A DNA stretch of 20,259 nt from IMG/VR virus record IMGVR_UViG_2541047882_000008. The stretch is one strand, 5' to 3'. How positions within the stretch are numbered: position 1 is the stretch's first letter; the number at the start of each line of letters is the position of its first letter. Below the pieces are notes generated by a model. That model ran no database searches, was not told where the DNA came from, and saw only the letters and a list, made by a program, of their open reading frames with translations. Both the position numbers and the translations under genes were made by a program. Positions 4,370-18,841 of this stretch are shown piece after piece. The DNA comes from a virus. Its lineage: Duplodnaviria > Heunggongvirae > Uroviricota > Caudoviricetes.

Positions 4370-4564
4370 ATGTCAACGAAGAACAGAACCCGCAGAACAA
4401 CAACCCGCAACATCCGCTTTCCTAACCAAATGATTGAACAAATTAACATCGCTCTTGAGCAAAAAGGGTCCGGGAATTTCTCAGCCTGGGTCATTGAAGC
4501 CTGCCGTCGGAGACTAACGTCAGAAAAGAGAGCATATACATCAATTAAAAGTGATGAAGAATGA
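4370..4564 (+). CDS. ylcI: Small prophage protein YlcI-like (64 aa, DUF3950-type)
   Basis: Translation MSTKNRTRRTTTRNIRFPNQMIEQINIALEQKGSGNFSAWVIEACRRRL... recalled as DLP12 YlcI. Confidence 0.6.
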   Translation: MSTKNRTRRTTTRNIRFPNQMIEQINIALEQKGSGNFSAWVIEACRRRLTSEKRAYTSIKSDEE

Positions 4565-4728
4565 ACATCCCGCGTTCTTCCCTCCGAACAGGACGATATT
4601 GTAAATTCACTTAATTACGAGGGCATTGCAGTAATTGAGTTGCAGTTTTACCACTTTCCTGACAGTGACAGACTGCGTGTTGGCTCTGTCACAGGCTAAA
4701 TAGTTTGAATGATTAGCAGTTATGGTGA

Positions 4729-4935
4729 TCAGTCAACCACCAGGGAATAATCCTTCATATTATTATCGTGCTTCACCAACGCTGCCTCAATTGCTCTGAA
4801 TGCTTCCAGAGACACCTTATGTTCTATACATGCAATTACAACATCAGGGTAACTCATAGAAATGGTGCTATTAAGCATATTTTTTACACGAATCAGATCC
4901 ACGGAGGGATCATCAGCAGATTGTTCTTTATTCAT
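4729..4935 (-). CDS. ybcW: Small prophage protein YbcW-like (68 aa)
   Basis: 68-aa ORF in the position and orientation of DLP12 ybcW. Confidence 0.55.
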
Positions 4936-5220
4936 TTTGTCGCTCCATGCGCTTGCTCTTCATCTAGCGGTTAAAATATTACTTCAAATCTTTCTGTATG
5001 AAGATTTGAGCACGTTGGCCTTACATACATCTGTCGGTTGTATTTCCCTCCAGAATGCCAGCAGGACCGCACTTTGTTACGCAACCAATACTATTAAGTG
5101 AAAACATTCCTAATATTTGACATAAATCATCAACAAAACACAAAGAGGTCAGACCAGATTGAAACGATAAAAACGATAATGCAAACTACGCGCCCTCGTA
5201 TCACATGGAAGGTTTTACCA

Positions 5221-5631
5221 ATGGCTCAGGTTGCCATTTTTAAAGAAATATTCGATCAAGTGCGAAAAGATTTAAACTGTGAATTGTTTTATTCTGAACT
5301 AAAACGTCACAACGTCTCACATTATATTTACTATCTAGCCACAGATAATATTCACATCGTGTTAGAAAACGATAACACCGTGTTAATAAAAGGACTTAAA
5401 AAGGTTGTAAATGTTAAATTCTCAAGAAACACGCATCTTATAGAAACGTCCTATGATAGGTTGAAATCAAGAGAAATCACATTTCAGCAATACAGGGAAA
5501 ATCTTGCTAAAGCAGGAGTTTTCCGATGGGTTACAAATATCCATGAACATAAAAGATATTACTATACCTTTGATAATTCATTACTATTTACTGAGAGCAT
5601 TCAGAACACTACACAAATCTTTCCACGCTAA
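5221..5631 (+). CDS. ybcV: YbcV-like prophage protein (136 aa from the internal Met; ORF track starts upstream at 5098)
   Basis: Translation [43 protein letters not shown]... recalled as DLP12 YbcV. Confidence 0.6.
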
Positions 5632-5921
5632 ATCATAACGTCCGGTTTCTTCCGTGTCAGCACCGGGGCGTTGGCATAATGCAATACGTGTACGCGCTAA
5701 ACCCTGTGTGCATCGTTTTTAATTATTCCCGGACACTCCCGCAGAGAAGTTCCCCGTCAGGGCTGTGGACATAGTTAATCCGGGAATACAATGACGATTC
5801 ATCGCACCTGACATACATTAATAAATATTAACAATATGAAATTTCAACTCATTGTTTAGGGTTTGTTTAATTTTCTACACATACGATTCTGCGAACTTCA
5901 AAAAGCATCGGGAATAACACC

Positions 5922-6215
5922 ATGAAAAAAATGCTACTCGCTACTGCGCTGGCCCTGCTTATTACAGGATGTGCTCAACAGACGTTTACTGTTCAAAACA
6001 AACCGGCAGCAGTAGCACCAAAGGAAACCATCACCCATCATTTCTTCGTTTCTGGAATTGGGCAGAAGAAAACTGTCGATGCAGCCAAAATTTGTGGCGG
6101 CGCAGAAAATGTTGTTAAAACAGAAACCCAGCAAACATTCGTAAATGGATTGCTCGGTTTTATTACTTTAGGCATTTATACTCCGCTGGAAGCGCGTGTG
6201 TATTGCTCACAATAA
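5922..6215 (+). CDS. bor: Bor lipoprotein (serum-resistance-associated outer membrane lipoprotein, 97 aa)
   Basis: Signal peptide plus lipobox LITGC; sequence and length match lambda Bor; placed opposite to the lysis genes as in lambda. Confidence 0.8.
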   Translation: MKKMLLATALALLITGCAQQTFTVQNKPAAVAPKETITHHFFVSGIGQKKTVDAAKICGGAENVVKTETQQTFVNGLLGFITLGIYTPLEARVYCSQ

Positions 6216-6246
6216 TTGCATGAGTTGCCCATCGATATGGGCAACT

Positions 6247-6708
6247 CTATCTGCACTGCTCATTAATATACTTCTGGGTTCCTTCCAGTTGTTTTTGCAT
6301 AGTGATCAGCCTCTCTCTGAGGGTGAAATAATCCCGTTCAGCGGTGTCTGCCAGTCGGGGGGAGGCTGCATTATCCACGCCGGAGGCGGTGGTGGCTTCA
6401 CGCACTGACTGACAGACTGCTTTGATGTGCAACCGACGACGACCAGCGGCAACATCATCACGCAGAGCATCATTTTCAGCTTTCGCATCAGCTAACTCCT
6501 TCGTGTATTTTGCATCGAGCGCAGCAACATCACGCTGACGCATCTGCATGTCAGTAATTGCCGCGTTCGCCAGCTTCAGTTCTCTGGCATTTTTGTCGCG
6601 CTGGGCTTTGTAGGTAATGGCGTTATCACGGTAATGATTAACAGCCCATGACAGGTAGACGATGATGCAGATAACCAGAGCGGAGATAATCGCGGTTACT
6701 CTGTTCAT
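6247..6708 (-). CDS. Rz: Spanin inner-membrane subunit Rz (i-spanin)
   Basis: N-terminal TM segment, coiled-coil body; Rz1 embedded in +1 frame; follows the endolysin gene. Confidence 0.8.
6306..6488 (-). CDS. Rz1: Spanin outer-membrane lipoprotein Rz1 (o-spanin), fully embedded within Rz in another frame
   Basis: 60-aa ORF with lipobox VVGC and proline-rich mature region, nested in Rz. Confidence 0.7.
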
Positions 6709-7202
6709 TGCTGACCCCACAAACAGATTTCACGCTCAATCTCACGACGAGTCATGAGACCTTTCCATTGCTTACCGCCAGCATATGTCCAGCGACGTAG
6801 CTGATCACATGCGCCTTTGATATCGCCCTGGTTTATTTTGCGAAGAAGCGTCGATGTTCTGAAATTGCCAGCACCCACGTTGTAAACGAATGAGTAAAGA
6901 GCGCCGCGCGTTGTTTCCGGTATATCGACTTTGATGTACGGGTTAATTTGTCTGGCGACAGTGGCAAGGTCTTTATTCAAGAGTGCTTTGCATTCTGCTT
7001 TGGTATACGTTTTACCGAGCATGATGTCTTTTCCGGTGTGTCCGTGACATACAGTCCATACGCCAACGATATCTTTGTATGGTACGTAGCTGACACCTTC
7101 CAGACCATCGTTACCACTTGGGCCAGTAATTAACACTGATGCTATAGCAATTGCTCCGCCACCAATAGCAGCAGCAACGGCTTTTCGTAATGATGGAGGC
7201 AT
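6705..7202 (-). CDS. R: Endolysin R, lysozyme family, with N-terminal signal-anchor-release (SAR) hydrophobic segment (phage 21 / DLP12 RrrD type)
   Basis: Gly/Ala-rich weakly hydrophobic N-terminus [18 protein letters not shown] followed by a lysozyme-like body; ATGA overlap with the S stop. Confidence 0.8.
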
Positions 7203-7417
7203 TATTCACCTCTCGCAGCCTTGCGCTTATCTTCTTTAATCTTGAAATAAAGGTTTGTCAGGTACGTCAGCAGGCCAAATACCAGGCTACCCAGCACACC
7301 TATTGCTGCCCACTGTGAGGGCGTGACTTTATCGAGCAGCTGTAAAAACCAGTAACCGGCACTACCTGCTGAGGTGCCATAGGCGACACCCGTTGTTAAC
7401 TTATCCATGGATTTCAT
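7202..7417 (-). CDS. S: Holin S of the phage-21 pinholin type, with dual-start motif MKSM (antiholin Met1 / holin Met4); ORF track extends to 7462 via a non-ATG start
   Basis: Translation [71 protein letters not shown] closely resembles S21 / EssD. Confidence 0.8.
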
Positions 7418-7544
7418 AACCCCACCTCGCAGACAAAGCGGGTGTAAATTGAGGGAATACAACGTATCGCAAAAAAGCAGAAACGTAACAGACTCGGAGT
7501 CAGTGAATAACTCAGGTATTGGGTTATCAGCTAATATCGAGACT

Positions 7545-7575
7545 CAAAAAATGGAAAAACCCGCTCGACGGCGGG
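7545..7575 (-). terminator. Rho-independent terminator upstream of S on the late-gene strand; candidate tR'-like terminator
   Basis: Hairpin CCCGC-TCGACG-GCGGG followed on the - strand by a U-rich tract (TTTTTCCATTTTTT). Confidence 0.45.
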
Positions 7576-8004
7576 TTTAAGCTGTGTGACGAAGTAACCA
7601 CTCTTAACAGCATAACCAATTTTTTACGTACGTAAACCACTAAATGATATTTGCGAGAATGCTACCGAGTATTGAAAACACCACTACAAATACATAAGCA
7701 AATCTCAACAAATAACCAACAAATAATTTCCAGCGTTATTTTTAGCTGGTTTAAATTGAATCTTCAAATTATAGAGCACTTATAAATAACAGCCATTAAT
7801 ATAAATTGGCTAATAGATTTATTTTTATTCAGCCAAGAGCCATGAATAGGATTCGATAGAAAAAGTTCAGATAAAAATAGAGATCTACTTCACAAATCAA
7901 ATGAGAAACCAAAACTTACATCTTGAAATAATCACATTGATTAGATGAATATTTATCGCGCAGTGACATCATTTTTTAATAATAGTTCAAAAAAAGGGCT
8001 CACG

Positions 8005-9087
8005 ATGAAAAAATTAACAGTGGCAATTTCTGCTGTAGCTGCATCAGTACTGATGGCGATGTCTGCTCAGGCAGCTGAAATTTATAATAAAGACAGTAAC
8101 AAGCTGGATCTGTACGGGAAAGTTAATGCTAAGCACTACTTCTCCTCTAATGATGCAGATGATGGTGATACTACTTATGCCCGTCTTGGCTTCAAAGGTG
8201 AAACCCAAATCAACGATCAACTGACTGGTTTCGGTCAGTGGGAATATGAATTCAAAGGCAACCGCGCTGAATCTCAAGGTTCCTCCAAAGATAAAACCCG
8301 TCTTGCCTTCGCTGGCCTGAAATTCGGTGACTACGGCTCCATCGATTATGGCCGTAACTACGGTGTAGCATACGATATTGGTGCATGGACCGACGTTCTG
8401 CCAGAATTCGGTGGCGATACCTGGACCCAAACAGATGTATTCATGACTGGTCGCACCACAGGTGTTGCAACTTATCGTAACAATGACTTCTTTGGTCTGG
8501 TTGATGGTCTGAACTTTGCTGCTCAGTATCAGGGTAAAAATGACCGCACTGACGTAACTGAAGCTAATGGTGATGGTTTCGGTTTCTCCACTACTTATGA
8601 GTATGAAGGATTCGGTGTAGGTGCAACCTATGCTAAATCTGACCGCACTAATAATCAGGTTATCTACGGTAACAACAGCCTGAATGCATCTGGTCAAAAT
8701 GCTGAAGTATGGGCAGCTGGTCTGAAATATGATGCGAACAACATCTATCTGGCTACCACCTATTCTGAAACCCAGAACATGACTGTTTTTGGTAATAACC
8801 ATATTGCCAACAAAGCACAAAACTTCGAAGTAGTTGCACAATATCAGTTCGACTTCGGTCTGCGTCCGTCCGTTGCTTACCTGCAATCTAAAGGAAAAGA
8901 CTTGGGTGCGTGGGGTGATCAGGACCTGGTTGAATATATTGATGTAGGTGCAACCTATTACTTCAACAAAAATATGTCCACTTTTGTTGATTACAAAATC
9001 AACCTGATTGATAAGAGCGATTTCACGAAAGCATCTGGCGTTGCTACCGATGATATCGTTGCTGTAGGTATGGTTTACCAGTTCTAA
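8005..9087 (+). CDS. nmpC: OmpC-family general porin (NmpC / OmpD / Lc-like), phage-borne moron (360 aa from MKKLTVAIS; ORF track starts at 7945)
   Basis: Signal peptide ending [10 protein letters not shown], porin-typical beta-barrel sequence ending in aromatic YQF; located between Q and S on the opposite strand, as nmpC in DLP12. Confidence 0.8.
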
Positions 9088-9102
9088 TTTGATTACTAAA
9101 AG

Positions 9103-9250
9103 ATATGTTGCGGGAGGCTTTGCCTCCCCAACATATAAGTGGCTCCCTCAAGCCACTTCCTTTAGGAGCACAACCTTGCTTCTAACTATATAAACCTTCT
9201 GTTATATATTACCCTTTATTTTTGGGGGCGTCTCAACGCCCCATTTTTAA
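9103..9250 (+). terminator. Cluster of three hairpins downstream of the porin gene, the last (9224-9250) a rho-independent terminator (GGGGCG-TCTCAA-CGCCCC then ATTTTTAATAATTTTT)
   Basis: Long near-perfect inverted repeat at 9103-9136, a 7-bp stem at 9137-9158, and a GC stem with T-run at 9224-9250. Confidence 0.5.
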
Positions 9251-9275
9251 TAATTTTTAGTAAACAATTGGCATA

Positions 9276-9659
9276 TTAATTAGAGTTATTAACAACGATA
9301 TCCATCTCTAACCGGATATCTAATGCCATTAACATCCCTTCAATTATACCCTCAGCCTTCTGTAACCTTTTCCCGATATAACCATCAGAGCAGCAATGCT
9401 TACCTGCCAGTGACATGAATGTCATACCGACTACATAATAATCTACTAATAAATCGTGCAAATCGCTGTTGTTCTTTTTCAGACGGGCCATGCACCCGCA
9501 AATGATCATCGCGTCATCGTCACAACATTGCGGGCGAGATTTTACTTTTGAAGTAATTAATCCCTTAAAACCGGCGGCAATGGACGACCAGGTCACATCT
9601 TCATGATTATTAGCCGCCCACGCTCCCCAACGCTCAAGAACCATCTGAATATCACGCAT
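9276..9659 (-). CDS. quuD: Late-gene antiterminator Q (phage 82/21 / QuuD type, 127 aa)
   Basis: Translation [24 protein letters not shown]... with Cys-rich zinc-binding region, positioned between rusA/ylcG and the lysis cassette. Confidence 0.7.
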
Positions 9660-9744
9660 CAACTTACTCCACAAAAATCAGACCAGAACGCCAATTACAA
9701 GCAAAAATCAATAAAACAGTATTAGTTGATTGTTATCTCTGACT

Positions 9745-9882
9745 TCATACTCCTGCTCCTGTCAGGGTTTTGGCGTAATTCCTCAGTATTCGGTAATCGG
9801 TCAAAACAGAACTGGGGAAACGATATAAGCGCAGGCGCATCCAGCGGTGGCGAAGAAGTTCTGCCATATTAAACTCAAACAT
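9745..9882 (-). CDS. ylcG: Small protein YlcG-like (46 aa), ATG overlapping the rusA stop
   Basis: [48 protein letters not shown] found by manual translation (below the ORF-track size cutoff); TGATG overlap with rusA. Confidence 0.55.
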   Translation of the reverse strand: MFEFNMAELLRHRWMRLRLYRFPSSVLTDYRILRNYAKTLTGAGV

Positions 9883-10244
9883 CATTCATTCCCCATTTCG
9901 GTGATGGTCAGTTCCAGCCTCCCACCTTTGGTAACAGGCATCTTCACAACGCGGTAATCAACGACCTGAGCATCATCCAGCCAGAAACCTGCTTTGGTGA
10001 GTGCGTCAAAAGCGGCTTTTTGCAGATTATCCAGGTCACGGCGACGGCGATCCGGCATGTGGCACTCAATACGGATTTTCACTGGCATAGCCAGGCCGAT
10101 ATCCAGCATTGCGTTTTTAATGATTCGGGTGACGTTATCGCGGTATGCCTGCCCTTCTGCGCTGATGTGTGTGCGCCCGCGATTATGGCGGTAATAGCGA
10201 TTATTGCTCGGAGGCCAGGGTAATGTGATGCTGTAGGTATTCAC
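9882..10244 (-). CDS. rusA: Holliday junction resolvase RusA (120 aa)
   Basis: Translation [36 protein letters not shown]... is the RusA family signature. Confidence 0.85.
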
Positions 10245-10531
10245 GCCTTAATAACCCCCTCTTTCAGCCAGATAACCTGTGTTCTCGCCATACCTTCCAG
10301 CGCGCATTCTTTTGCATATGCAGCATCGACAAAATGTGTGCGGCGGTCGATTTCGTCGTGGCAGGCAGAACATGCAATGGTGGCAATCAGGTCTGGCGGT
10401 TTCGTACCGGTGCCGCACAATCCAGTCAGCCGGATATGTGCCAGTACAGACGTTTCAGGGTTGCCATTACATACGCCAGGGATTCTTACCTGGCATTCCC
10501 GACCACGCGCTGCTTTTCTCAAATCAGCCAT
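10241..10531 (-). CDS. ybcO: YbcO-like nin-region protein (96 aa from [10 protein letters not shown]; ORF track starts upstream)
   Basis: Cys/His-rich ~96-aa protein in the DLP12 ybcO position, ATGA overlap with rusA. Confidence 0.65.
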
Positions 10532-10694
10532 GACTCCTCCTTGCTGCCAGTCGCAACCATTTTTTATCAACCAGGCTGGCGGTATATCCGAGCAGTGTTG
10601 GTATTTCGGAAGGCTTCAGCTCCGGTTTACGCTTACGACGATTTGGTACTCTGTAGATGTGTCCGTTCATGACACGAATAAGCGGTGTAGCCAT
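10524..10694 (-). CDS. ninE: NinE-like small basic protein (56 aa)
   Basis: Manual translation [56 protein letters not shown]; overlaps ybcN stop and ybcO start as in nin operons. Confidence 0.5.
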   Translation of the reverse strand: MATPLIRVMNGHIYRVPNRRKRKPELKPSEIPTLLGYTASLVDKKWLRLAARRSHG

Positions 10695-11149
10695 TACGCC
10701 TCCTGTTTGTCGCGGAGCTGCTGGAACTCGCAGCTCTGCGGAATAGTCAGGTGGCAGCCAATATTCACCGCCCAGGCTTCAACCTTACACAGGAAGATAT
10801 ACATCTCTCCGGTATCAAGATCGGAGGTATGGCGTAACGACTGGATAGTAGTGATTTCGCCGGTTACGACATCAACCAGGTCCTTGGTTTCATAACCGAG
10901 GTATGTGTGTTTGAGAGCATCTTTTACCCATGCTGCGGTAGCGAACGATTTCCCCCTGCTGATGAGGTATTCACTGATTTCGCTGTACCACATGTGGCTG
11001 AGTGCATTCTGGGAAAGACTGCGTTTCTCACGCCACGGTTTAAGCACCATGCGAAAGCATTTTCCGTCCTCCAGATAAGGCTGGATCTGCTGGCCGATAG
11101 CGGTGAAGTTACCGCGATGCAGTTTGATGCCATCTTGTGGTAGGTTCAC
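10694..11149 (-). CDS. ybcN: YbcN-like nin-region protein (151 aa)
   Basis: 151-aa ORF recalled as DLP12 YbcN, first gene of the nin-like block. Confidence 0.65.
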
Positions 11150-11339
11150 GCTTCACCTCCGCAGAGGTCAGACGCTGGATGCAAAAAATCGCAGGTGCAT
11201 TTCTGCATCTGTGAAGGGAGAAGAGAGTTTGGATTGTATGTGCGCATAAACGTCCCCGTTTAGCGCAGAAGTCACCGGAGTTGTTCAAGCTCCGATGACT
11301 TTATTATTACGAATTGATTTTACAAAATCAAAAGGTATG

Positions 11340-11792
11340 TTAGTGACGTGGGTCTGTTATTATGCGAGAAGGGTTTCCGTATAAAACAAGGACCTTACTT
11401 CCTTGAGTAAATAACGGATCTTTGCCTTGAACAATGGTCATTAAATTCCCATTCTCAGTTTCGACAACATATTCCATGCCTGTTTGTTTTGTTGCTGAAG
11501 ATTCGATTGCTGCCCCGGCAATACCACCAATGACTGCACCACCAACGGCACCAACGATATTAGAACGAACTCCCCCACCAAGCGCAGAACCAGCGGTTGC
11601 CCCCACGGCAGCCCCAGCAGTCCCGCCTAACGCGGAAGTCCCACTGATATCAACCCCCCTAGCACTAATAACTGTACCAGCGATAGTTCGATTAACCATG
11701 CCCACAGAGCCAACAGAATAACTATTTGGCGATATATTTTGTGCGCATCCAACCAACACTAAGAGTGGAGCAATTACGAATAATCGCTTCAT
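11340..11792 (-). CDS. SlyB/PCP-family outer-membrane lipoprotein paralogue (glycine-zipper domain plus C-terminal beta domain), prophage cargo
   Basis: Signal peptide with lipobox LVGC; Gly/Ala zipper GTSALGGTAGAAVGATAGSALGGGV...GAVGGAVIGGIAGAAI; C-terminal region aligns by eye with SlyB (GMEYVVETENGNLMTIVQGKDPLFTQGSKVLVLYGNPSRI). Confidence 0.7.
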   Translation of the reverse strand: MKRLFVIAPLLVLVGCAQNISPNSYSVGSVGMVNRTIAGTVISARGVDISGTSALGGTAGAAVGATAGSALGGGVRSNIVGAVGGAVIGGIAGAAIESSATKQTGMEYVVETENGNLMTIVQGKDPLFTQGSKVLVLYGNPSRIITDPRH

Positions 11793-12349
11793 TTAGCTAC
11801 CCTAACAGGAAACATTGGACGAGAAAGATCAACACTTTCTAATGCTTGCAAGAACTGCGTTATGTTGTTTTGCACCGCGCGATTAACAGATTCGCGTGCT
11901 CGAACAATACCGTAGAATGCGTAACTGGCTGGAACAGTACCGGTAGACTCAATATCCTGCGTATATATAATATCACCATTCGCACGGTTGATTATTTCAT
12001 ACCTTGCAATTGCTTTAGTTGTCATTGAAACACCAAAAGCAGGAACGTCAAGAGCCAACACTTTAACATTTAAGCTAACCGTATTTGGTGAACTATCACG
12101 AAAAATAGTCATTCGGTCGAGTGCTTCCTGCAAAGATTCACGCCAAATTGGAGTTATAGCCTCCATACCAGCAGTGATATCCCCTTTCTGCTCATCTGGA
12201 CGAGCAAGTGATACCGTTAATGACTTAATTTCAGCATCTATTTTTTTCTGGCTAACTCCCACGTTAGGTGTTGAAAAATTCAATGGTGGCACACTAGCGC
12301 AACCTGTTAAAGAACCAATAATCATGGCTAATAATATTATCTTCTTCAT
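11789..12349 (-). CDS. Lipoprotein of unknown function (186 aa), translationally coupled (ATGA overlap) to the downstream SlyB-like gene
   Basis: Signal peptide MKKIILLAMIIGSLTGC with lipobox; AT-rich codon usage; 4-nt overlap with the next gene. Confidence 0.6.
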   Translation of the reverse strand: MKKIILLAMIIGSLTGCASVPPLNFSTPNVGVSQKKIDAEIKSLTVSLARPDEQKGDITAGMEAITPIWRESLQEALDRMTIFRDSSPNTVSLNVKVLALDVPAFGVSMTTKAIARYEIINRANGDIIYTQDIESTGTVPASYAFYGIVRARESVNRAVQNNITQFLQALESVDLSRPMFPVRVAK

Positions 12350-12605
12350 AAATTTACCTTATTGTTATAACCAAAGGAATTATAAAGTAAAAAAGTTCAC
12401 TATCACTAGCCATTAACGACATCAATTTCAGAGAAACATGGTACTCATTTCCACAAATTTGACACAAGTCATTTTCACCTACATATTCCATCATACTTGA
12501 TGCATATGTTATTGAAGCCTCTATCCTATCCGTTCATAATAGCAATAGTTACCCGGGTGATAGTACCTCTATGATTACTCGTCTTTCTGATTGATTGGAT
12601 TAAAT

Positions 12606-12797
12606 ATGCGCGCCAAAATTTATCAACTTTCGTTATGGATATTTATTTCGTTTCTAGCGATCTATGCCTTTATTATCTATAAAGGTTCTTATATTGGAGT
12701 AGCATTGCATCAAATTGCTTGGATCATCATTATTGCCTCTGGCTTGATTGCTAGGCTAACTAAACCAAAGCAAAAACCAATTTCGTCCAATAATTAG
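12606..12797 (+). CDS. Putative small membrane protein with two predicted TM helices (63 aa from the ATG; ORF track starts at a TTG at 12591)
   Basis: Two hydrophobic stretches (LSLWIFISFLAIYAFIIY, IAWIIIIASGLIA); AT-rich; weak ribosome-binding site, so coding status uncertain. Confidence 0.3.
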   Translation: MRAKIYQLSLWIFISFLAIYAFIIYKGSYIGVALHQIAWIIIIASGLIARLTKPKQKPISSNN

Positions 12798-12956
12798 ACA
12801 TGTATTAAAAAAATGATATTTTTATGTACATAGTCTATTGAAAATTGCCGCGATAAAATGCCAACACCCGCTTCATCGCGGCACTCTGGCGACACTCCTT
12901 GAAAATCAGATTCGTGCTCACCTTTCCTTCCCGTTCTTCCCTGGTAGCGAACCGGT

Positions 12957-13403
12957 AATCATCCGATCTGCGTTACCGAGTGGATGGATGAATGCCGCCG
13001 CGAACCATTCAAAACCCGCGAAGGCAGAGAAATTACGGGGCCGTGGCAGTCGCATCCCAAACGGATGTTACGGCATAAAGCCATGATTCAGTGTGCCCGT
13101 CTGGCCTTCGGATTTGCTGGTATCTATGACAAGGATGAAGCCGAGCGCATTGTCGAAAATACCGCATACACCGCAGAACGTCAGCCGGAACGCGACATTA
13201 CTCCGGTTAACGATGAAACCATGCAGGAGATTAACACTCTGCTGATTGCCCTGGACAAAACATGGGATGACGACTTATTGCCGCTCTGTTCCCAGATATT
13301 TCGCCGCGACATTCGCGCATCGTCAGAACTGACACAGGCCGAAGCAGTGAAAGCTCTTGGATTCCTGAAACAGAAAGCCACTGAGCAGAAGGTGGCAGCA
13401 TGA
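12957..13403 (+). pseudogene. bet: 5'-truncated bet (lambda Red-beta recombinase), only about the C-terminal 148 codons present
   Basis: Translation ...NHPICVTEWMDECRREPFKTREGREITGPWQSHPKRMLRHKAMIQCARLAFGF...[11 protein letters not shown] matches the lambda Bet C-terminus; upstream sequence unrelated and no in-frame start for the N-terminal domain. Confidence 0.8.
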
Positions 13404-14080
13404 CACCGGACATTATCCTGCAGCGTACCGGGATCGACGTGAGAGCTGTCGAACAGGGGGATGATGCATGGCACAAATTACGGCTCGGCGTCATCACCGC
13501 TTCAGAAGTTCACAACGTGATAGCCAAGCCCCGCTCAGGAAAGAAGTGGCCTGACATGAAAATGTCCTACTTCCACACCCTGCTGGCTGAGGTTTGCACC
13601 GGTGTGGCTCCGGAAGTTAATGCTAAGGCGCTGGCATGGGGAAAACAGTACGAGAACGACGCCAGAACCCTGTTTGAATTCACTTCCGGCGTGAATGTTA
13701 CTGAATCCCCGATCATCTATCGCGACGAAAGTATGCGCACCGCCTGCTCTCCCGATGGTTTATGCAGTGACGGCAATGGCCTTGAGCTGAAATGCCCGTT
13801 TACCTCCCGGGATTTCATGAAGTTCCGGCTCGGTGGTTTCGAGGCCATAAAGTCGGCTTACATGGCCCAGGTGCAGTACAGCATGTGGGTGACACGAAAA
13901 GATGCCTGGTACTTTGCCAACTATGACCCGCGTATGAAGCGTGAAGGACTGCATTATGTCGTGGTTGAGCGGGATGAAAAGTACATGGCGAGTTTTGACG
14001 AGATGGTGCCGGTGTTCATCGAAAAAATGGACGAGGCACTGGCTGAAATTGGTTTTGTATTTGGGGAGCAATGGCGATGA
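13400..14080 (+). CDS. exo: Lambda exonuclease Exo (Red-alpha, 226 aa)
   Basis: Translation [54 protein letters not shown]... essentially lambda Exo; ATGA overlap with bet. Confidence 0.9.
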
Positions 14081-14259
14081 CGCATCCTCACGATAATATC
14101 CGGGTAGGCGCAATCACTTTCGTCTACTCCGTTACAAAGCGAGGCTGGGTATTTCCCGGCCTTTCTGTTATCCGAAATCCACTGAAAGCACAGCGGCTGG
14201 CTGAGGAGATAAATAATAAACGAGGGGCTGTATGCACAAAGCATCTCCTGTTGAGTTAA
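14077..14259 (+). CDS. Lambda orf60a-like protein (60 aa)
   Basis: 60-aa ORF immediately after exo, overlapping orf63 by 28 nt as in lambda. Confidence 0.6.
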
Positions 14260-14423
14260 GAACGAGTATTGAGATGGCACATAGCCTTGCTCAAATTGGA
14301 ATCAGGTTTGTGCCAATACCAGTAGAAACAGACGAAGAATTTCATACGTTAGCCACATCCCTTTCACAAAAACTGGAAATGATGGTGGCGAAAGCAGAAG
14401 CAGATGAGAGAGACCAGGTATGA
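14232..14423 (+). CDS. Lambda orf63-like protein (63 aa)
   Basis: 63-aa [66 protein letters not shown] in the lambda orf63 position. Confidence 0.6.
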   Translation: MHKASPVELRTSIEMAHSLAQIGIRFVPIPVETDEEFHTLATSLSQKLEMMVAKAEADERDQV

Positions 14424-14499
14424 CAACCACTGAATGCATTTTTCTGGCAGCGGGCTTCATATTCTGTGTGCTTATGCTTGCCGACATGGGGCTTGTTCA

Positions 14500-14715
14500 G
14501 TGACACCTCAGCAGGAAAACGCCCTTCGCAGCATTGCCCGTCAGGCTAATTCTGAAATCAAAAAAGCCAGACAGCAGTTTCCGGATAAAAACGTCGATGA
14601 CATTTGCCGTAGCGTACTGAAGAAGCACCGCGAAACGGTAACGCTGATGGGATTCACACCGACTCATTTAAGTCTAGCAATCGGCATGTTAAACGGCGTT
14701 TTTAAGGAACGGTGA
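14500..14715 (+). CDS. Hypothetical early-left-operon protein (71 aa from in-frame GTG; start uncertain)
   Basis: Open frame in the lambda orf61 region; GTG overlaps the stop of a 27-codon hydrophobic mini-ORF (14420-14503). Confidence 0.35.
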   Translation: MTPQQENALRSIARQANSEIKKARQQFPDKNVDDICRSVLKKHRETVTLMGFTPTHLSLAIGMLNGVFKER

Positions 14716-14813
14716 ACATGAAAAGCAAAATCATCAGGGAGCTACAGGCTCCTTTTTTATTATTCGCATTCACCCTCAAGCGTATTAACCAACAATTCAG
14801 GGATTAATGAAAG

Positions 14814-15035
14814 ATGGCAGACATCATTGATTCAGCATCAGAAATTGAAGAATTACAGCGCAACACAGCAATAAAAATGCGCCGCCTGAACCACCAGGCT
14901 ATATCTGCCACTCATTGTTGTGAGTGTGGCGATCCGATAGATGAACGAAGACGCCTGGCCGTTCAGGGTTGTCGGACTTGTGCAAGTTGCCAGGAGGATC
15001 TGGAACTTATCAGTAAACAGAGAGGTTCGAAGTGA
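14814..15035 (+). CDS. TraR/DksA-type C4 zinc-finger protein (lambda Orf73-like, 73 aa)
   Basis: Motif CCECGDPIDERRRLAVQGCRTCASCQ, typical of phage TraR-like RNA polymerase-binding proteins. Confidence 0.7.
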   Translation: MADIIDSASEIEELQRNTAIKMRRLNHQAISATHCCECGDPIDERRRLAVQGCRTCASCQEDLELISKQRGSK

Positions 15036-15283
15036 GCGTAATTCACTCTCAGGCACTGCGTGAAGCGGCAGAGCAGGCAATGCATGACAACTGGGGATTT
15101 GACGCGGACCTTTTCCATGAGCTGGTAACACCATCGATTGTGCTGACACTGCTGGATGAACGGGAAAGAAACCAGCAGTACATCAAACGCCGCGACCAGG
15201 AGAACGAGGATATTGCGCTAACGGTGAGGAAACTGCGTGTTGAGCTGGAGACAGCAAAAATCAAAACTCAACGAGCAGCGTGA
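15032..15283 (+). CDS. ea22: Ea22-like protein, N-terminal 83 codons ending at an in-frame TGA; the same frame stays open for 53 further codons to a TAG at 15443-15445
   Basis: N-terminus resembles my recollection of lambda Ea22 (QALREAAEQAMHD..WGFDADLFHELVTPSIVL); Ea22-like sequence (EGVISDGSKRIA) continues in frame after the TGA. Confidence 0.5.
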   Translation: MSVIHSQALREAAEQAMHDNWGFDADLFHELVTPSIVLTLLDERERNQQYIKRRDQENEDIALTVRKLRVELETAKIKTQRAA

Positions 15284-15581
15284 GTAGAAGGTGTTATCTC
15301 GGATGGAAGTAAGCGTATTGCTGAACTGGAGGCCTGGGTTGAATACACAAGAGCTGCATACGTAAGAGCAAAAGACAAGGGAGATTTGATCAGAGTTATT
15401 ACCCGACAACCAACGGGATTTTACGCTTACGTACCATGTAATTAGGAATCCTTGAAGTGGCAGCCTAACTGCGGATACACTGAAATGGCGATTTGGTAAC
15501 ATGTTTCGCACAAGGCTGTTACTACGCTTAAAGATAATCAGCCATGATTAAACGCTTTGTAAAAAGTAAAAGGAAATTACA

Positions 15582-16196
15582 ATGAAAAAATCAATACTAA
15601 TTTTAGGGCTTACGTTAATTGTCTCATCTCAAATACCATCGGCAATGGCAAAAAATGAATCAAGACTTTGGGTTGTTGTTGATCGAACGGAAAGACATAC
15701 CTGCCCTTCAAGTAAATGTGGAGTGGCTGGGAAACTATTTTTCAGGGAAGGCGTAGATTTTCTAGAAAAAAAAGGTGAATGGGTTCGTATAACTGAGCCA
15801 TATTCAGCCTCATGTGTGGGAGGGGAAAGCGAATATATTAAAGAAGGTAATAAATCCTGCACAAGAAAAAACGGAATCGTCAATGGCAAGTTTTCAGAAT
15901 GGGTTAAACTTAGTGATCTTAGCAGTGAAAGGCCATCAGATCCTGCTGAAAATGCGAGCGGAGATGATACTTTAATCAAAGGATCTGATGACTACCGTAT
16001 ATACAAAAAAGAGTTTTCTTCGGCAGCTAGGAAGTTAATAAACGAAGGGGTCTGCACGGAAAGCGACTTTAAGGAAATCGGAGGGTGGATGGCATCAAGC
16101 AATAAGGGGAAAAACATCTATTTCACATATTGCGGAGGAATGACGTTGTCGAACAGAATATACCTAGACGTTAAAAGTGGAAAGACTTTTAGATAA
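15582..16196 (+). CDS. Secreted cysteine-containing protein of unknown function (204 aa), AT-rich moron
   Basis: N-terminal signal peptide MKKSILILGLTLIVSSQIPSAMA; six Cys in the mature part; marked drop in GC content; followed by a terminator. Confidence 0.6.
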   Translation: MKKSILILGLTLIVSSQIPSAMAKNESRLWVVVDRTERHTCPSSKCGVAGKLFFREGVDFLEKKGEWVRITEPYSASCVGGESEYIKEGNKSCTRKNGIVNGKFSEWVKLSDLSSERPSDPAENASGDDTLIKGSDDYRIYKKEFSSAARKLINEGVCTESDFKEIGGWMASSNKGKNIYFTYCGGMTLSNRIYLDVKSGKTFR

Positions 16197-16267
16197 TATG
16201 ATATTACCAATGACAGTATTAATTTAATGCCTCCATAGAATTATCTCTAGGAAGTATGTATAAGAAA

Positions 16268-16302
16268 AGCCCGCACAATGAGCTGCTGCGGGCTTTGTGT
16301 TA
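16268..16302 (+). terminator. Rho-independent terminator after the secreted-protein gene (stem AGCCCGCA/TGCGGGCT then TTTGTGTT)
   Basis: GC-rich inverted repeat followed by a T-rich tract. Confidence 0.5.
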
Positions 16303-16489
16303 TTCGCCATATTTTATGAAGCAAATACGACACTATAGATAATTAAGCGTTGCTGGTTGTCGATTCCTCACTCACTCCTGTTGATGGCTCTCTTCTTGTA
16401 TGTGCCATTGAAGGGTAATATCGAGTAAAAAGATACCGGAAGTATCCGCGCCGCCATGATTGTCTTTCTCCTAATGCAGGAAAAGCAGA

Positions 16490-16609
16490 ATGGCTAAATC
16501 ATCAGCAGAGCGCAAAGTCGATCAGAGAGCCAAGCAAGCATCATCCGGTATGCGTAAGCTGGAGCTTGTACTTGATGCTCAGGAAATTGAAATGCTGGAT
16601 CGTAACTGA
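16490..16609 (+). CDS. Small ORF (39 aa) with a good ribosome-binding site, ending at TGA; same frame stays open 72 more codons (to 16826) and encodes a zinc-ribbon-like motif
   Basis: AGGAAA 6 nt before ATG; downstream in-frame segment contains C-x2-C-x9-C-x-C (RCGKCGERVPVNSCPCNG) but no ATG (an in-frame GTG exists). Confidence 0.35.
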   Translation: MAKSSAERKVDQRAKQASSGMRKLELVLDAQEIEMLDRN

Positions 16610-16856
16610 GCCACGCGCCGCTTCAGGCATGCGCCTTACGAGTTTGGTGAGTACATCGCGTTACTGAGCCGCCAGGATGATGCACGTGTGCGCTGGCGTA
16701 TAAAATCGATCAGCAGAAAACGTTGCGGTAAGTGCGGCGAGAGAGTTCCTGTTAATTCATGCCCGTGTAATGGTGACTCACAATGCTGGGTGACCAAAGG
16801 CTGGCACGAAACAAAATTAATGATATAAATCTCTGTGACATGTCACGGAGGCGGCA

Positions 16857-17285
16857 ATGAAATTAGACCAGCAATATCTAAAAGATCTACTTATCGCATT
16901 CGAAAAAACTCATGGCCCTGACACGATGCTTAGTGAACTAGAGGATAATGGCTTTAATAGATATGACCAAAATTTTATTTTCCATATGCGATTATTATGC
17001 GACTACGAATTAATAGTCAGGGTTGATGGAAAACCTGGGTTCGGTCATATAATGTCCAACGAGTTAGGGGAAGGTGTTGGATATAGTTGGATCGAAGTAC
17101 CACTGAGGTTGACAGCAAGAGGGCATGATTTTATTGCTGACTTGCGTCAAAAGGAGGTCTGGCAAACTATAAAAACAAACTTTAAGGATGAGGGAATTAG
17201 TACACTAATAAGTGTTTCAAAATCACTAGCAAAAGGCTTTGCAAGGAAAAAGATAAAAGATATTACAGGAATAGATATTGAATAA
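16857..17285 (+). CDS. Hypothetical protein (142 aa), AT-rich, occupying the slot of lambda ea8.5
   Basis: Clean ORF with ribosome-binding site GGAGG upstream, low GC, followed by a terminator. Confidence 0.55.
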   Translation: MKLDQQYLKDLLIAFEKTHGPDTMLSELEDNGFNRYDQNFIFHMRLLCDYELIVRVDGKPGFGHIMSNELGEGVGYSWIEVPLRLTARGHDFIADLRQKEVWQTIKTNFKDEGISTLISVSKSLAKGFARKKIKDITGIDIE

Positions 17286-17329
17286 TTCTTAGCATCAGCA
17301 ACTACTGCCTTTGGTGGAAATTATATCTG

Positions 17330-17354
17330 AACTCGCTACGGCGAGTTTTGTTTT
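17330..17354 (+). terminator. Rho-independent terminator (AACTCGC-TACG-GCGAGTT then TTTTGTTTT)
   Basis: 7-bp stem, 4-nt loop, T-rich tail directly after the 142-aa gene. Confidence 0.6.
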
Positions 17355-17367
17355 ATGGAGATGATAA

Positions 17368-17535
17368 ATGCACTTCCGAGTCACAGGTGAATGGAATGGA
17401 GAACCATTCAACAGAGTTATCGAAGCAGAGAACATCAATGACTGCTATGACCACTGGATGATATGGGCGCAGATAGCACATGCAGACATAACCAATATTC
17501 GAATTGAAGAACTGAAAGAACACCAAGCCGCCTGA
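17368..17535 (+). CDS. Lambda orf55-like small protein (55 aa)
   Basis: Manual translation MHFRVTGEWNGEPFNRVIEAENINDCYDHWMIWAQIAHADITNIRIEELKEHQAA; size and position (just upstream of xis) as lambda orf55. Confidence 0.5.
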   Translation: MHFRVTGEWNGEPFNRVIEAENINDCYDHWMIWAQIAHADITNIRIEELKEHQAA

Positions 17536-17548
17536 TGGCGGTTTTTTC
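17527..17548 (+). terminator. Candidate rho-independent terminator between orf55 and xis (CCGCC-TGAT-GGCGG then TTTTTTC)
   Basis: Short GC stem with a 6-T run; the orf55 stop codon lies in the loop. Confidence 0.45.
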
Positions 17549-17574
17549 TTGCGTGTAATTGCGGAGACTTTGCG

Positions 17575-17793
17575 ATGTACTTGACACTTCAGGAGTGGAA
17601 CGCTCGCCAGCGACGCCCAAGAAGCCTTGAAACAGTTCGTCGATGGGTGCGCGAATGCAGGATATTCCCTCCTCCGGTTAAGGATGGAAGAGAATATCTG
17701 TTCCACGAATCAGCGGTAAAGGTTGACTTAAATCGACCAGTAACAGGTAGCCTTTTGAAGAGGATCAGAAATGGGAAGAAGGCGAAGTCATGA
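17575..17793 (+). CDS. xis: Excisionase Xis (72 aa), lambda type
   Basis: Translation MYLTLQEWNARQRRPRSLETVRRWVRECRIFPPPVKDGREYLFHESAVKVDLNRP... matches lambda Xis; overlaps int start. Confidence 0.9.
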   Translation: MYLTLQEWNARQRRPRSLETVRRWVRECRIFPPPVKDGREYLFHESAVKVDLNRPVTGSLLKRIRNGKKAKS

Positions 17794-18841
17794 GCGCCGG
17801 GATTTACCCCCTAACCTTTATATAAGAAACAATGGATATTACTGCTACAGGGACCCAAGGACGGGTAAAGAGTTTGGATTAGGCCGAGACAGGCGAATCG
17901 CAATCACTGAAGCTATACAGGCCAACATTGAGTTATTTTCAGGACACAAACACAAGCCTCTGACAGCGAGAATCAACAGTGATAATTCCGTTACGTTACA
18001 TTCATGGCTTGATCGCTACGAAAAAATCCTGGCCAGCAGAGGAATCAAGCAGAAGACACTCATAAATTACATGAGCAAAATTAAAGCAATAAGGAGGGGT
18101 CTGCCTGATGCTCCACTTGAAGACATCACCACAAAAGAAATTGCGGCAATGCTCAATGGATACATAGACGAGGGAAAGGCGGCATCAGCCAAGTTAATCA
18201 GATCAACACTGAGCGATGCATTCCGAGAGGCTATGGCTGAAGGCCATATAACAACAAACCCGGTCGCAGCCACTCGCGCTGCAAAATCAGAGGTAAGGAG
18301 ATCAAGACTTACGGCTGACGAATACCTGAAAATTTATCAAGCAGCAGAATCATCACCATGTTGGCTTAGACTTGCAATGGAACTGGCTGTTGTTACCGGG
18401 CAGCGAGTTGGTGATTTATGCGAAATGAAGTGGTCTGATATCGTAGATGGATATCTTTATGTCGAGCAAAGCAAAACAGGCGTAAAAATTGCCATCCCAA
18501 CAACATTGCATGTTGATGCTCTCGGGATATCAATGAAGGAAACACTTGATAAATGCAAAAAGATTCTTGGCGGAGAAACCATAATTGCATCTACTCGTCG
18601 TGAACCGCTTTCATCCGGCACAGTATCAAGGTATTTTATGCGCGCACGAAAAGCATCAGGTCTCTCCTTCGAAGGGGATCCGCCAACCTTTCACGAGTTG
18701 CGCAGTTTGTCTGCAAGACTCTATGAGAAGCAGATAAGCGATAAATTTGCTCAACATCTTCTCGGGCATAAGTCGGACACCATGGCATCACAGTATCGTG
18801 ATGACAGAGGCAGGGAGTGGGACAAAATTGAAATCAAATAA
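17771..18841 (+). CDS. int: Tyrosine integrase Int (356 aa), essentially lambda Int
   Basis: Translation MGRRRSHERRDLPPNLYIRNNGYYCYRDPRTGKEFGLGRDRRIAITEAIQANIELFSGHKHKPL... through ...HLLGHKSDTMASQYRDDRGREWDKIEIK matches lambda Int from memory, including catalytic R-K-H-R-H-Y region. Confidence 0.95.
   Translation: MGRRRSHERRDLPPNLYIRNNGYYCYRDPRTGKEFGLGRDRRIAITEAIQANIELFSGHKHKPLTARINSDNSVTLHSWLDRYEKILASRGIKQKTLINYMSKIKAIRRGLPDAPLEDITTKEIAAMLNGYIDEGKAASAKLIRSTLSDAFREAMAEGHITTNPVAATRAAKSEVRRSRLTADEYLKIYQAAESSPCWLRLAMELAVVTGQRVGDLCEMKWSDIVDGYLYVEQSKTGVKIAIPTTLHVDALGISMKETLDKCKKILGGETIIASTRREPLSSGTVSRYFMRARKASGLSFEGDPPTFHELRSLSARLYEKQISDKFAQHLLGHKSDTMASQYRDDRGREWDKIEIK

Follow-up and report, generated by a model that had tools for sequence, protein, structure and literature searches.

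Which protein takes the place of lambda Ea8.5 upstream of the orf55–xis–int genes in a lambdoid prophage, and does it serve in defense? We addressed this question for IMG/VR virus record IMGVR_UViG_2541047882_000008 (Caudoviricetes; hereafter "the window," meaning the whole stretch of 20,259 nucleotides), in which an open reading frame (ORF) of 142 amino acids stands in this position. A preliminary description, made from the letters alone, had left the protein unassigned and had regarded the site as a reasonable place for a defense or anti-defense gene. We found that the ORF encodes a real, conserved, mobile, and non-catalytic winged helix-turn-helix (wHTH) protein of the DUF2513 family that has no fixed partner gene. 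In addition, rare relatives are fused to TIR, NIR, and AbiTi-like domains, and the gene is retained in decayed prophages. Our tentative interpretation, to which we give somewhat less than an even chance, is that the protein is an orphan module with a sensor or regulator role in phage–host or phage–phage conflict.

Family assignment and predicted fold

The protein matched the Pfam family DUF2513 (PF10711; E = 6.8e-11, 42.9 bits against a gathering threshold of 29.6), with residues 2–115 aligned to positions 1–100 of the 100-position model. It also matched PHROG 585, annotated as "unknown function" (E = 2.3e-34), with residues 1–135 aligned to positions 1–127 of the 128-position profile, and its RefSeq entry, WP_000762730.1, was already labeled "DUF2513 domain-containing protein." The family that the preliminary description could not name is thus catalogued in three resources. 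The window protein is a full-length member that nothing sets apart from the others; it conforms to the typical length and architecture of the family (about 135–145 amino acids, single domain) and shares its motifs, F-x-F-H and PLRLTxxGH. F42, H43, L47, D49, R84-L85-T86, and G89-H90 were invariant in an alignment of 34 sequences, and H43, R84, T86, and G89 were at least 90% conserved across 115 diverse members.

Scans of the protein against Pfam, PHROG, PADLOC, and NCBIfam revealed no enzymatic domain, with no match of any kind in NCBIfam. None of the Pfam MarR, PadR, and HxlR models matched, the sole other Pfam match with E < 1 being a sub-cut-off one to wHTH-PRTase_assc (E = 0.1), and the best match of the sequence profile among all PDB chains was not below E = 0.75. 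Some DUF2513 relatives scored on the model of Bacillus subtilis YjcQ (PF09639; E down to 5.5e-6), although the window protein itself did not match this model; the scores suggest that DUF2513 and YjcQ may belong to one wHTH superfamily that is present in prophage-like elements. To our knowledge, YjcQ is likewise functionally uncharacterized.

An AlphaFold2 model built with 34 homologs was of high predicted accuracy (predicted local distance difference test score, 93; predicted template modeling score, 0.83). According to this model, the protein has the winged-helix fold of MarR/PadR-type factors, with helices at residues 5–16, 25–30, 38–49, 87–97, 99–108, and 114–137 and a four-stranded wing at residues 53–55, 64–69, 73–78, and 83–85. 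The conserved F-x-F-H motif lies in helix 3 and R-L-T-x-x-G-H follows the wing, an arrangement in which the conserved residues would form a structural wHTH signature rather than a catalytic site. Foldseek searches against PDB and BFVD returned only weak, generic wHTH matches of the MarR/PadR/HxlR kind. Unlike these repressors, whose winged-helix fold it shares in the prediction, the protein had no match to their profile hidden Markov models (HMMs), gave a Foldseek TM score of only about 0.4 with E > 0.05, and combines an acidic core with a four-stranded wing that bears a variable insert. The wHTH core was acidic in every homolog checked (isoelectric point, 4.3–6.0) and the C-terminal tail was mostly basic; an acidic core does not positively support classical DNA binding, while remaining compatible with it.

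The HMM and fold searches proposed in the preliminary description therefore named the family, but they yielded no defense model and only a generic wHTH fold match. Nor do they place the protein clearly in a known non-defense family, the outcome that the preliminary description had considered fatal to a defense role, DUF2513 being catalogued but uncharacterized.

Effector domains fused to DUF2513 in rare relatives

A profile search of 1.8 billion representative proteins returned 1557 clusters, and we surveyed 147 newly listed representatives among them for fusions. Most were about 135 amino acids long, and about 8 of the 147 matches listed were longer, fused forms, in which the DUF2513 module was 35–42% identical to the window protein. 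P0139, a 6-member cluster present on several contigs, carries a CAP12/Pycsar-type TIR domain (PF10137; PADLOC PDC-S35, PycTIR) and aligned to the window protein with 39% identity over 133 amino acids (E = 2e-26). P0236 carries a TIR_2/ThsB-like domain (PDC-S66, E = 2e-57; 36% identity over 99 amino acids, E = 3e-16), and P0206, recovered by the DUF2513 profile with E = 3e-21, carries a domain of the PDC-S60 type with a weak match to DUF4062. According to a 2026 preprint (bioRxiv 10.64898/2026.09.04.749371), DUF4062 serves as the NIR NADase effector in anti-phage systems. Three further proteins (P0125, P0214, and P0202) have an AbiTi-like C terminus that ends in a hydrophobic segment, the first of them being 42% identical to the window protein over 138 amino acids (E = 6e-33). 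Finally, a 702-amino acid protein from an alphaproteobacterial metagenome-assembled genome (L143, 5737–7845) joins a P0139-like module to a different C-terminal region of about 570 amino acids that has a hydrophobic, membrane-like segment and no Pfam or PADLOC match.

PADLOC models matched only the C-terminal domains of the fusions and not the window protein. Single-protein TIR/NADase candidates (COG4271-type TIR, PDC-S35/S60/S66, ThsB-like, and DUF4062/NIR) are thus connected with the family through the N-terminal DUF2513 module that its rare relatives share, whereas the window protein, unlike the TIR, NIR, and AbiTi-like fusions, ends at residue 142 without an effector domain. Since the whole orphan protein aligned to the N-terminal part of the fusions, the orphan corresponds to the module of "module plus killing domain" proteins. 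A module joined to a killing domain is the usual sensor–effector layout of abortive-infection proteins.

We also found effector genes, or mobile contexts, around some of these relatives. A 276-amino acid DUF2513–TIR fusion on three JGI metagenome contigs (L016, 265–1095; L017, 3875–4705; L018, 1639–2469) was the only cargo beside a 221-amino acid integrase-like gene, between housekeeping genes; this arrangement looks like a minimal integrative islet with one candidate defense gene. The P0206 locus is a mobile region with a second, orphan DUF2513 gene and an XRE/ImmA pair. On a prophage contig (L093), a 307-amino acid TIR-like gene (7076–7999) that matched a PADLOC CBASS TIR effector model (E = 7.5e-6) ends 1 nucleotide before a DUF2513 gene (8001–8417) whose product is 51% identical to the window protein, and the pair is flanked by genes for a methyltransferase and a DUF1367 protein. 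These two genes may represent an unfused two-gene module of a TIR-like and a DUF2513 protein. BLAST searches with the effector domains against all retrieved loci found no unfused effector beyond this one, and neither the window nor any of 46 E. coli-type loci had an effector gene next to DUF2513. Repeating the large protein search with a more diverse alignment did not recover the fusion proteins and added little.

Mobility, retention, and setting of the cassette

The DUF2513 gene was present in 183 of 5426 complete E. coli genomes, and a lambda-like context was common to the four strains whose annotated neighborhoods were inspected and to the E. coli-type IMG/VR loci. Homologs numbered 113 across Enterobacterales, those with 46–77% identity occurring in Citrobacter, Serratia, Yersinia, Pantoea, Cronobacter, Pectobacterium, and other genera. 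Scanning a set of species-representative genomes with a back-translated motif revealed 56 true members, in Proteobacteria, Acidobacteriota, Nitrospirota, Myxococcota, and Planctomycetota. Viral contigs were scanned with the homolog alignment, and all 77 scorable IMG/VR copies were stand-alone proteins of 133–145 amino acids.

The cassette occupied different slots in different phages: the exo–xis interval in E. coli, a nin-like region with a MazG-like gene on one side and DinI on the other in Citrobacter, and an early operon near the integrase in Serratia. Further copies lay between methyltransferase genes and DUF1367/YbcO, sometimes with an AIPR gene directly upstream, just before terminase genes, or after lysis genes. 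The int-proximal accessory slot recognized in the preliminary description is therefore real, being filled by a mobile AT-rich cassette that also enters other accessory slots of phages. Across 80 viral and 56 bacterial genomic loci, the neighbors were mutually unrelated, and neither a conserved partner nor a conserved adjacent toxin, as in a type II toxin–antitoxin system, was found; our own ORF calls in the GC-rich genomic loci were partly spurious, and only neighbor proteins that looked real were scanned. We rejected a fixed partner gene, as the neighbors differ and the frequent upstream PHROG 536 gene also occurs without DUF2513 and decays repeatedly where DUF2513 stays intact. In Vibrio, Methylomonas, and Citrifermentans, distantly related orphan genes of the family each had a tightly linked neighbor of 225–321 amino acids (L019, 6446–7123; L022, 6552–7268; L020, 5009–5974). 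None of these neighbors had a Pfam, PHROG, or credible PADLOC match, and the downstream neighbors in Vibrio and Methylomonas were mutually unrelated on direct comparison; they could be variable partners.

Comparisons between genera gave a proportion of synonymous differences (pS) of 0.72–0.94, saturated in most pairs, and a proportion of nonsynonymous differences (pN) of 0.14–0.35. A pS near saturation together with a low pN indicates strong long-term purifying selection on the DUF2513 gene, and with 113 homologs across Enterobacterales and 1557 clusters overall it identifies a real gene rather than a chance ORF. Within E. coli, where substitutions were few, dN/dS was 0.43 for DUF2513, 0.08 for int, 0.03 for xis, and 0.65 for the upstream PHROG 536 gene. 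The DUF2513 ORF was intact in 44 of the 46 E. coli-type loci, and the other two, with a 7-nucleotide insertion near the 3′ end, still contained an ORF of 143 amino acids. Of its neighbors, the PHROG 536 gene had suffered at least 4 independent disruptions across these loci (the in-frame TGA of the window being present in 20 of 46), and the 204-amino acid gene further upstream was frameshifted in 2 and absent in 5. Orf55 (PHROG 676) carried a nonsense mutation at codon 9 or 19, or a frameshift, in 10 of 46 loci, through at least 3 independent events, and so decays faster than the adjoining DUF2513 gene in related E. coli prophages. The 46 loci include prophage remnants without pL, N, or cI, and retention there as well suggests that the gene may confer a benefit in the lysogen.

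Within the window, the 429-bp gene has a GC content of 36.1% (45.7% for the window as a whole) and a GGAGG sequence 5 nucleotides before its ATG, in agreement with the AT-rich ORF and ribosome-binding site of the preliminary description; GGAG was found at the equivalent site in diverged DUF2513 loci too. Megablast homology of the phiV10/TL-2011b type stopped at position 16821 on the left, and lambda-type homology began at 17320 (lambda 29333, 41 nucleotides from the ea8.5 stop at 29374), leaving a unique segment of about 0.5 kb. The breakpoint and the gene order confirmed that the ORF stands in the place of ea8.5. The two proteins share this slot, the pL-operon orientation, small size, and a non-essential look, but not sequence similarity (BLASTP of the DUF2513 protein against Ea8.5, E = 13); ea8.5 is thus replaced by position and not by homology, and we ruled out that the DUF2513 protein is an Ea8.5 homolog. 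Ea8.5 has a fold of the homeodomain/zinc-finger type and not a wHTH fold.

A hairpin downstream of the gene (17329–17348; 8 pairs, 4 of them G-C, with a UACG loop) is followed by TTTTGTTTT and thus has the form of an intrinsic terminator. The 75-nucleotide terminator region had a folding energy of −17.2 kcal/mol (z = −1.5), and the terminator is canonical but moderate rather than strong. It also belongs to the lambda backbone and not to the cassette, since lambda-type homology starts before it and the hairpin recurs, with 1 mismatch, in lambda itself (about 29299–29324) between orf55 and ea8.5. The "strong terminator" of the preliminary description is therefore present, though with less strength than stated.

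We also examined the leader of the gene. The palindrome GTGACATGTCAC occurred once in the window against 0.03 sites expected. Along with the last 45 or so nucleotides of the PHROG 536 gene, it was conserved upstream of DUF2513 in many diverged loci, and this block of about 57 nucleotides was kept in four loci without the PHROG 536 gene and is hence conserved even where it is non-coding. Nevertheless, GTGACATGTCAC is not specific to DUF2513, as it follows the PHROG 536 gene in TL-2011b, where no DUF2513 is present, and is missing before several DUF2513 genes. Many enterobacterial phages carried it directly behind their PHROG 536 gene, with or without DUF2513; it was also found in L104 (1894–1905) and at various positions in L067–L095, and some phage loci had one or two extra sites in distinct contexts, some apparently inside coding sequence. 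Its frequency in the phage loci is far above chance, and it could be an operator, a recombination or cassette boundary, or a processing site. We rejected a multi-copy operator, as the whole Chlobot genome, that of a viable lambda-like phage, holds one copy and the extra copies elsewhere lie in unrelated contexts.

Upstream of the palindrome, the leader contains a consensus-level candidate sigma-70 promoter, CTGGCA-N17-TATAAA. A promoter scan of the window flagged no promoter and missed this site because its −10 hexamer lacks T at position 6; the homologous CTGGCA-N17-TATAGT was flagged in a Serratia locus (L008) and in L072. The Serratia locus also has a clean terminator directly after the DUF2513 gene. 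The conserved promoter-like leader and this terminator suggest that the cassette may be a semi-autonomous moron with a putative promoter of its own; the atypical composition (36% versus 45.7% GC) and the mosaic boundaries (16821 and 17320) expected of a moron were both found.

The element itself is a defective chimeric lambdoid prophage at attB-lambda. The window was 100% identical to E. coli PEC1009 and further strains, and the ORF taken by itself was also 100% identical to ATCC 8739, in which a different prophage remnant with two IS1 copies occupies the same site. A DLP12-like part that includes lysis and nin genes (about 4370–12957; nohD, ylcI, ybcW, ybcV, bor, rzpD, rrrD, essD, quuD, rusA, ybcO, ninE, ybcN) is joined to a lambda-like bet′–exo–xis–int block (12957–18841). 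At the junction, near 12957, a truncated ren abuts a truncated bet, suggesting recombination of two lambdoid prophages; N, cI, and pL are absent from the prophage. The PHROG 536 gene, intact in other strains, encodes a Cys-rich C terminus and supplies, with its 3′ end, the left edge of the cassette. The 204-amino acid ORF had no PADLOC match. Phage Chlobot (PP925838), in which the DUF2513 gene occupies positions 17516–17944, has the same gene order as the window, and its pL operon is complete (N, ral, kil, gam, bet, exo, ..., DUF2513, orf55, xis, int).

Table 1. Positions of the DUF2513 gene, its signals, and nearby features in the window
Feature	Position	Strand	Remarks
ompC/nmpC-like porin gene	7945–9087		in the DLP12-like part
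204-amino acid ORF	15582–16196		AT-rich; PHROG 8310; signal-peptide-like N terminus MKKSILILGLTLIVSSQIPSAMA; another exo–xis accessory gene
PHROG 536 "transcriptional regulator" gene, 112 amino acids	16490–16828	+	pseudogene; in-frame TGA at codon 40 (16607–16609)
Candidate sigma-70 promoter	16801–16829	+	overlaps the last codons of the PHROG 536 pseudogene
Perfect 12-bp palindrome GTGACATGTCAC	16835–16846	.	follows the stop codon of the PHROG 536 gene and precedes the ribosome-binding site
Ribosome-binding site GGAGG	16847–16851	+	read from the sequence
DUF2513 coding sequence, 142 amino acids	16857–17285	+	stop codon included; ATG start; winged-helix core 1–98, helical tail 99–142
Intrinsic-terminator-like hairpin and U-tract	17329–17356	+	within the lambda-homologous flank
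orf55	17368–17535		downstream of the DUF2513 gene
xis	17575–17793		downstream of orf55
int	17771–18841		downstream of xis; host ybhC next

Possible functions of the orphan protein

The free-standing DUF2513 protein is a non-catalytic wHTH module whose core is acidic and whose C-terminal helical tail is basic, and it is encoded by an AT-rich cassette of about 0.5 kb that travels among temperate enterobacterial phages and has here taken the place of ea8.5. In our tentative interpretation, the module would bind a nucleic-acid or protein ligand, and its own promoter may drive its expression; lacking an effector, the orphan would work in trans as a sensor or regulator. The same module forms the N-terminal part of abortive-infection-type proteins with TIR, NIR (DUF4062), or AbiTi-like domains in rare relatives. 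We lean slightly toward a function expressed from the prophage, such as the exclusion or modulation of incoming phages, over lytic counter-defense or a decoy role. Retention and the moron-like signals favor the former; in favor of the latter are the place of the gene in early operons, the small size and acidity of the protein, and its lack of an effector.

Several results weigh against a sensor or regulator module acting in conflict. The window protein itself has no effector, and the fusions are rare (about 8 among the 147 listed and 1 of the 56 species-representative loci) and mostly metagenomic singletons, so that their bearing on the abundant orphan form may be slight. A scan of the protein against PADLOC-DB 2.0 returned 0 families at E ≤ 1, Foldseek found nothing in PDB at E ≤ 1e-3, the wHTH match being generic, and a full-text literature search for DUF2513/PF10711 found no paper on the family, for which there is no solved structure either. 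As for retention, the dN/dS of 0.43 in E. coli would fit relaxed constraint as well as diversifying selection, and the 46 loci are closely related prophages, so that the count of intact copies does not represent independent samples. Moreover, the gene lies co-directionally inside early operons, 28 nucleotides after the upstream gene, and this position, together with the absence of a flagged promoter in the window, means that expression may be lytic-only.

A possible, if doubtful, alternative is that the protein is a conventional dimeric wHTH transcription regulator, perhaps with GTGACATGTCAC as its operator, that autoregulates or tunes phage development. Its predicted fold is nearest to those of the MarR, HxlR, and PadR repressors, R-L-T-x-x-G is a canonical wHTH motif, and the C-terminal helix could dimerize. 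The palindrome is suitably placed, with the promoter-like site before it and the ribosome-binding site after it, and persists in diverged loci even after loss of the upstream gene; however, its presence in TL-2011b without DUF2513 and its absence before several DUF2513 genes argue against an operator particular to this protein, and 12 bp is short for a wHTH dimer. Genes of the exo–xis region are known to affect lysogenization and induction (PMC3824215, PMC8614690), and in non-phage genomes DUF2513 adjoins variable genes, as regulators of variable cargo do, but the cassette shifts between unrelated slots and has no constant target gene. The acidic core in all members examined and the lack of any MarR, PadR, or HxlR Pfam match also argue against this alternative, which in addition leaves the fusions to TIR, NIR, and AbiTi-like domains unexplained.

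We consider it improbable that the protein is a phage counter-defense decoy, or an orphan antitoxin-like neutralizer, that is made early from pL and binds the ligand or the oligomerization surface of host effectors that are DUF2513-linked or of the TIR type, and so holds these inactive. Such a role would suit a small acidic protein that lacks an effector yet spans all of the N-terminal module found in the fused effectors. It would also suit a gene that occurs in Chlobot, a viable phage, and lies co-directionally in early operons near host-takeover genes (methyltransferases, MazG-like, DinI, and gam/ral). Nevertheless, orphans vastly outnumber the fused forms, leaving few targets; the Enterobacterales searches found no fused homolog; and the DUF2513 family offers no experimental precedent. 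The retention of the gene in promoter-less prophage remnants argues instead for a benefit to the lysogen. Finally, that the gene is an unexpressed passenger of this defective prophage, not yet decayed, is very unlikely: although the prophage lacks pL, N, and cI and joins a truncated ren to a truncated bet near 12957, the PHROG 536 gene upstream is a pseudogene, no promoter passes the scan, and dN/dS in E. coli is 0.43, DUF2513 is intact in 44 of 46 loci against several independent disruptions in three neighboring genes, has been under strong long-term purifying selection, and keeps a conserved leader with a promoter-like site.

The sensor or regulator module that we tentatively prefer could also be part of something larger. 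On the basis of the fusions, DUF2513 might be the recognition or regulatory module of an unrecognized modular abortive-infection family, in which TIR, NIR/DUF4062 NADase, AbiTi-like, or other membrane-type effectors are fused to it or encoded alongside and the orphans are trans-acting versions of it, either minimal exclusion factors that the prophage expresses or decoys by which such effectors are silenced; we regard this as unlikely, though worth stating.

On present evidence, the window gene is ordinary: it encodes a protein already catalogued in Pfam, PHROG, and RefSeq, in a variable slot where such genes are expected. No connection of DUF2513 with NADase or Abi-type effector domains was found in the searchable literature, and the connection seen in the fusions makes DUF2513 a reasonable target for a simple phenotypic test, which the small gene, present in the cultivable phage Chlobot and in E. 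coli ATCC 8739, would make easy. If the modular abortive-infection family exists, the ea8.5 slot would here hold a new kind of immune or counter-immune gene. If the fusions reflect function, TIR and NIR NADase effectors would have a defined sensor module, and a role in bacterial immunity or counter-immunity would fall to a family that comprises about 1500 clusters and is very common in temperate phages.

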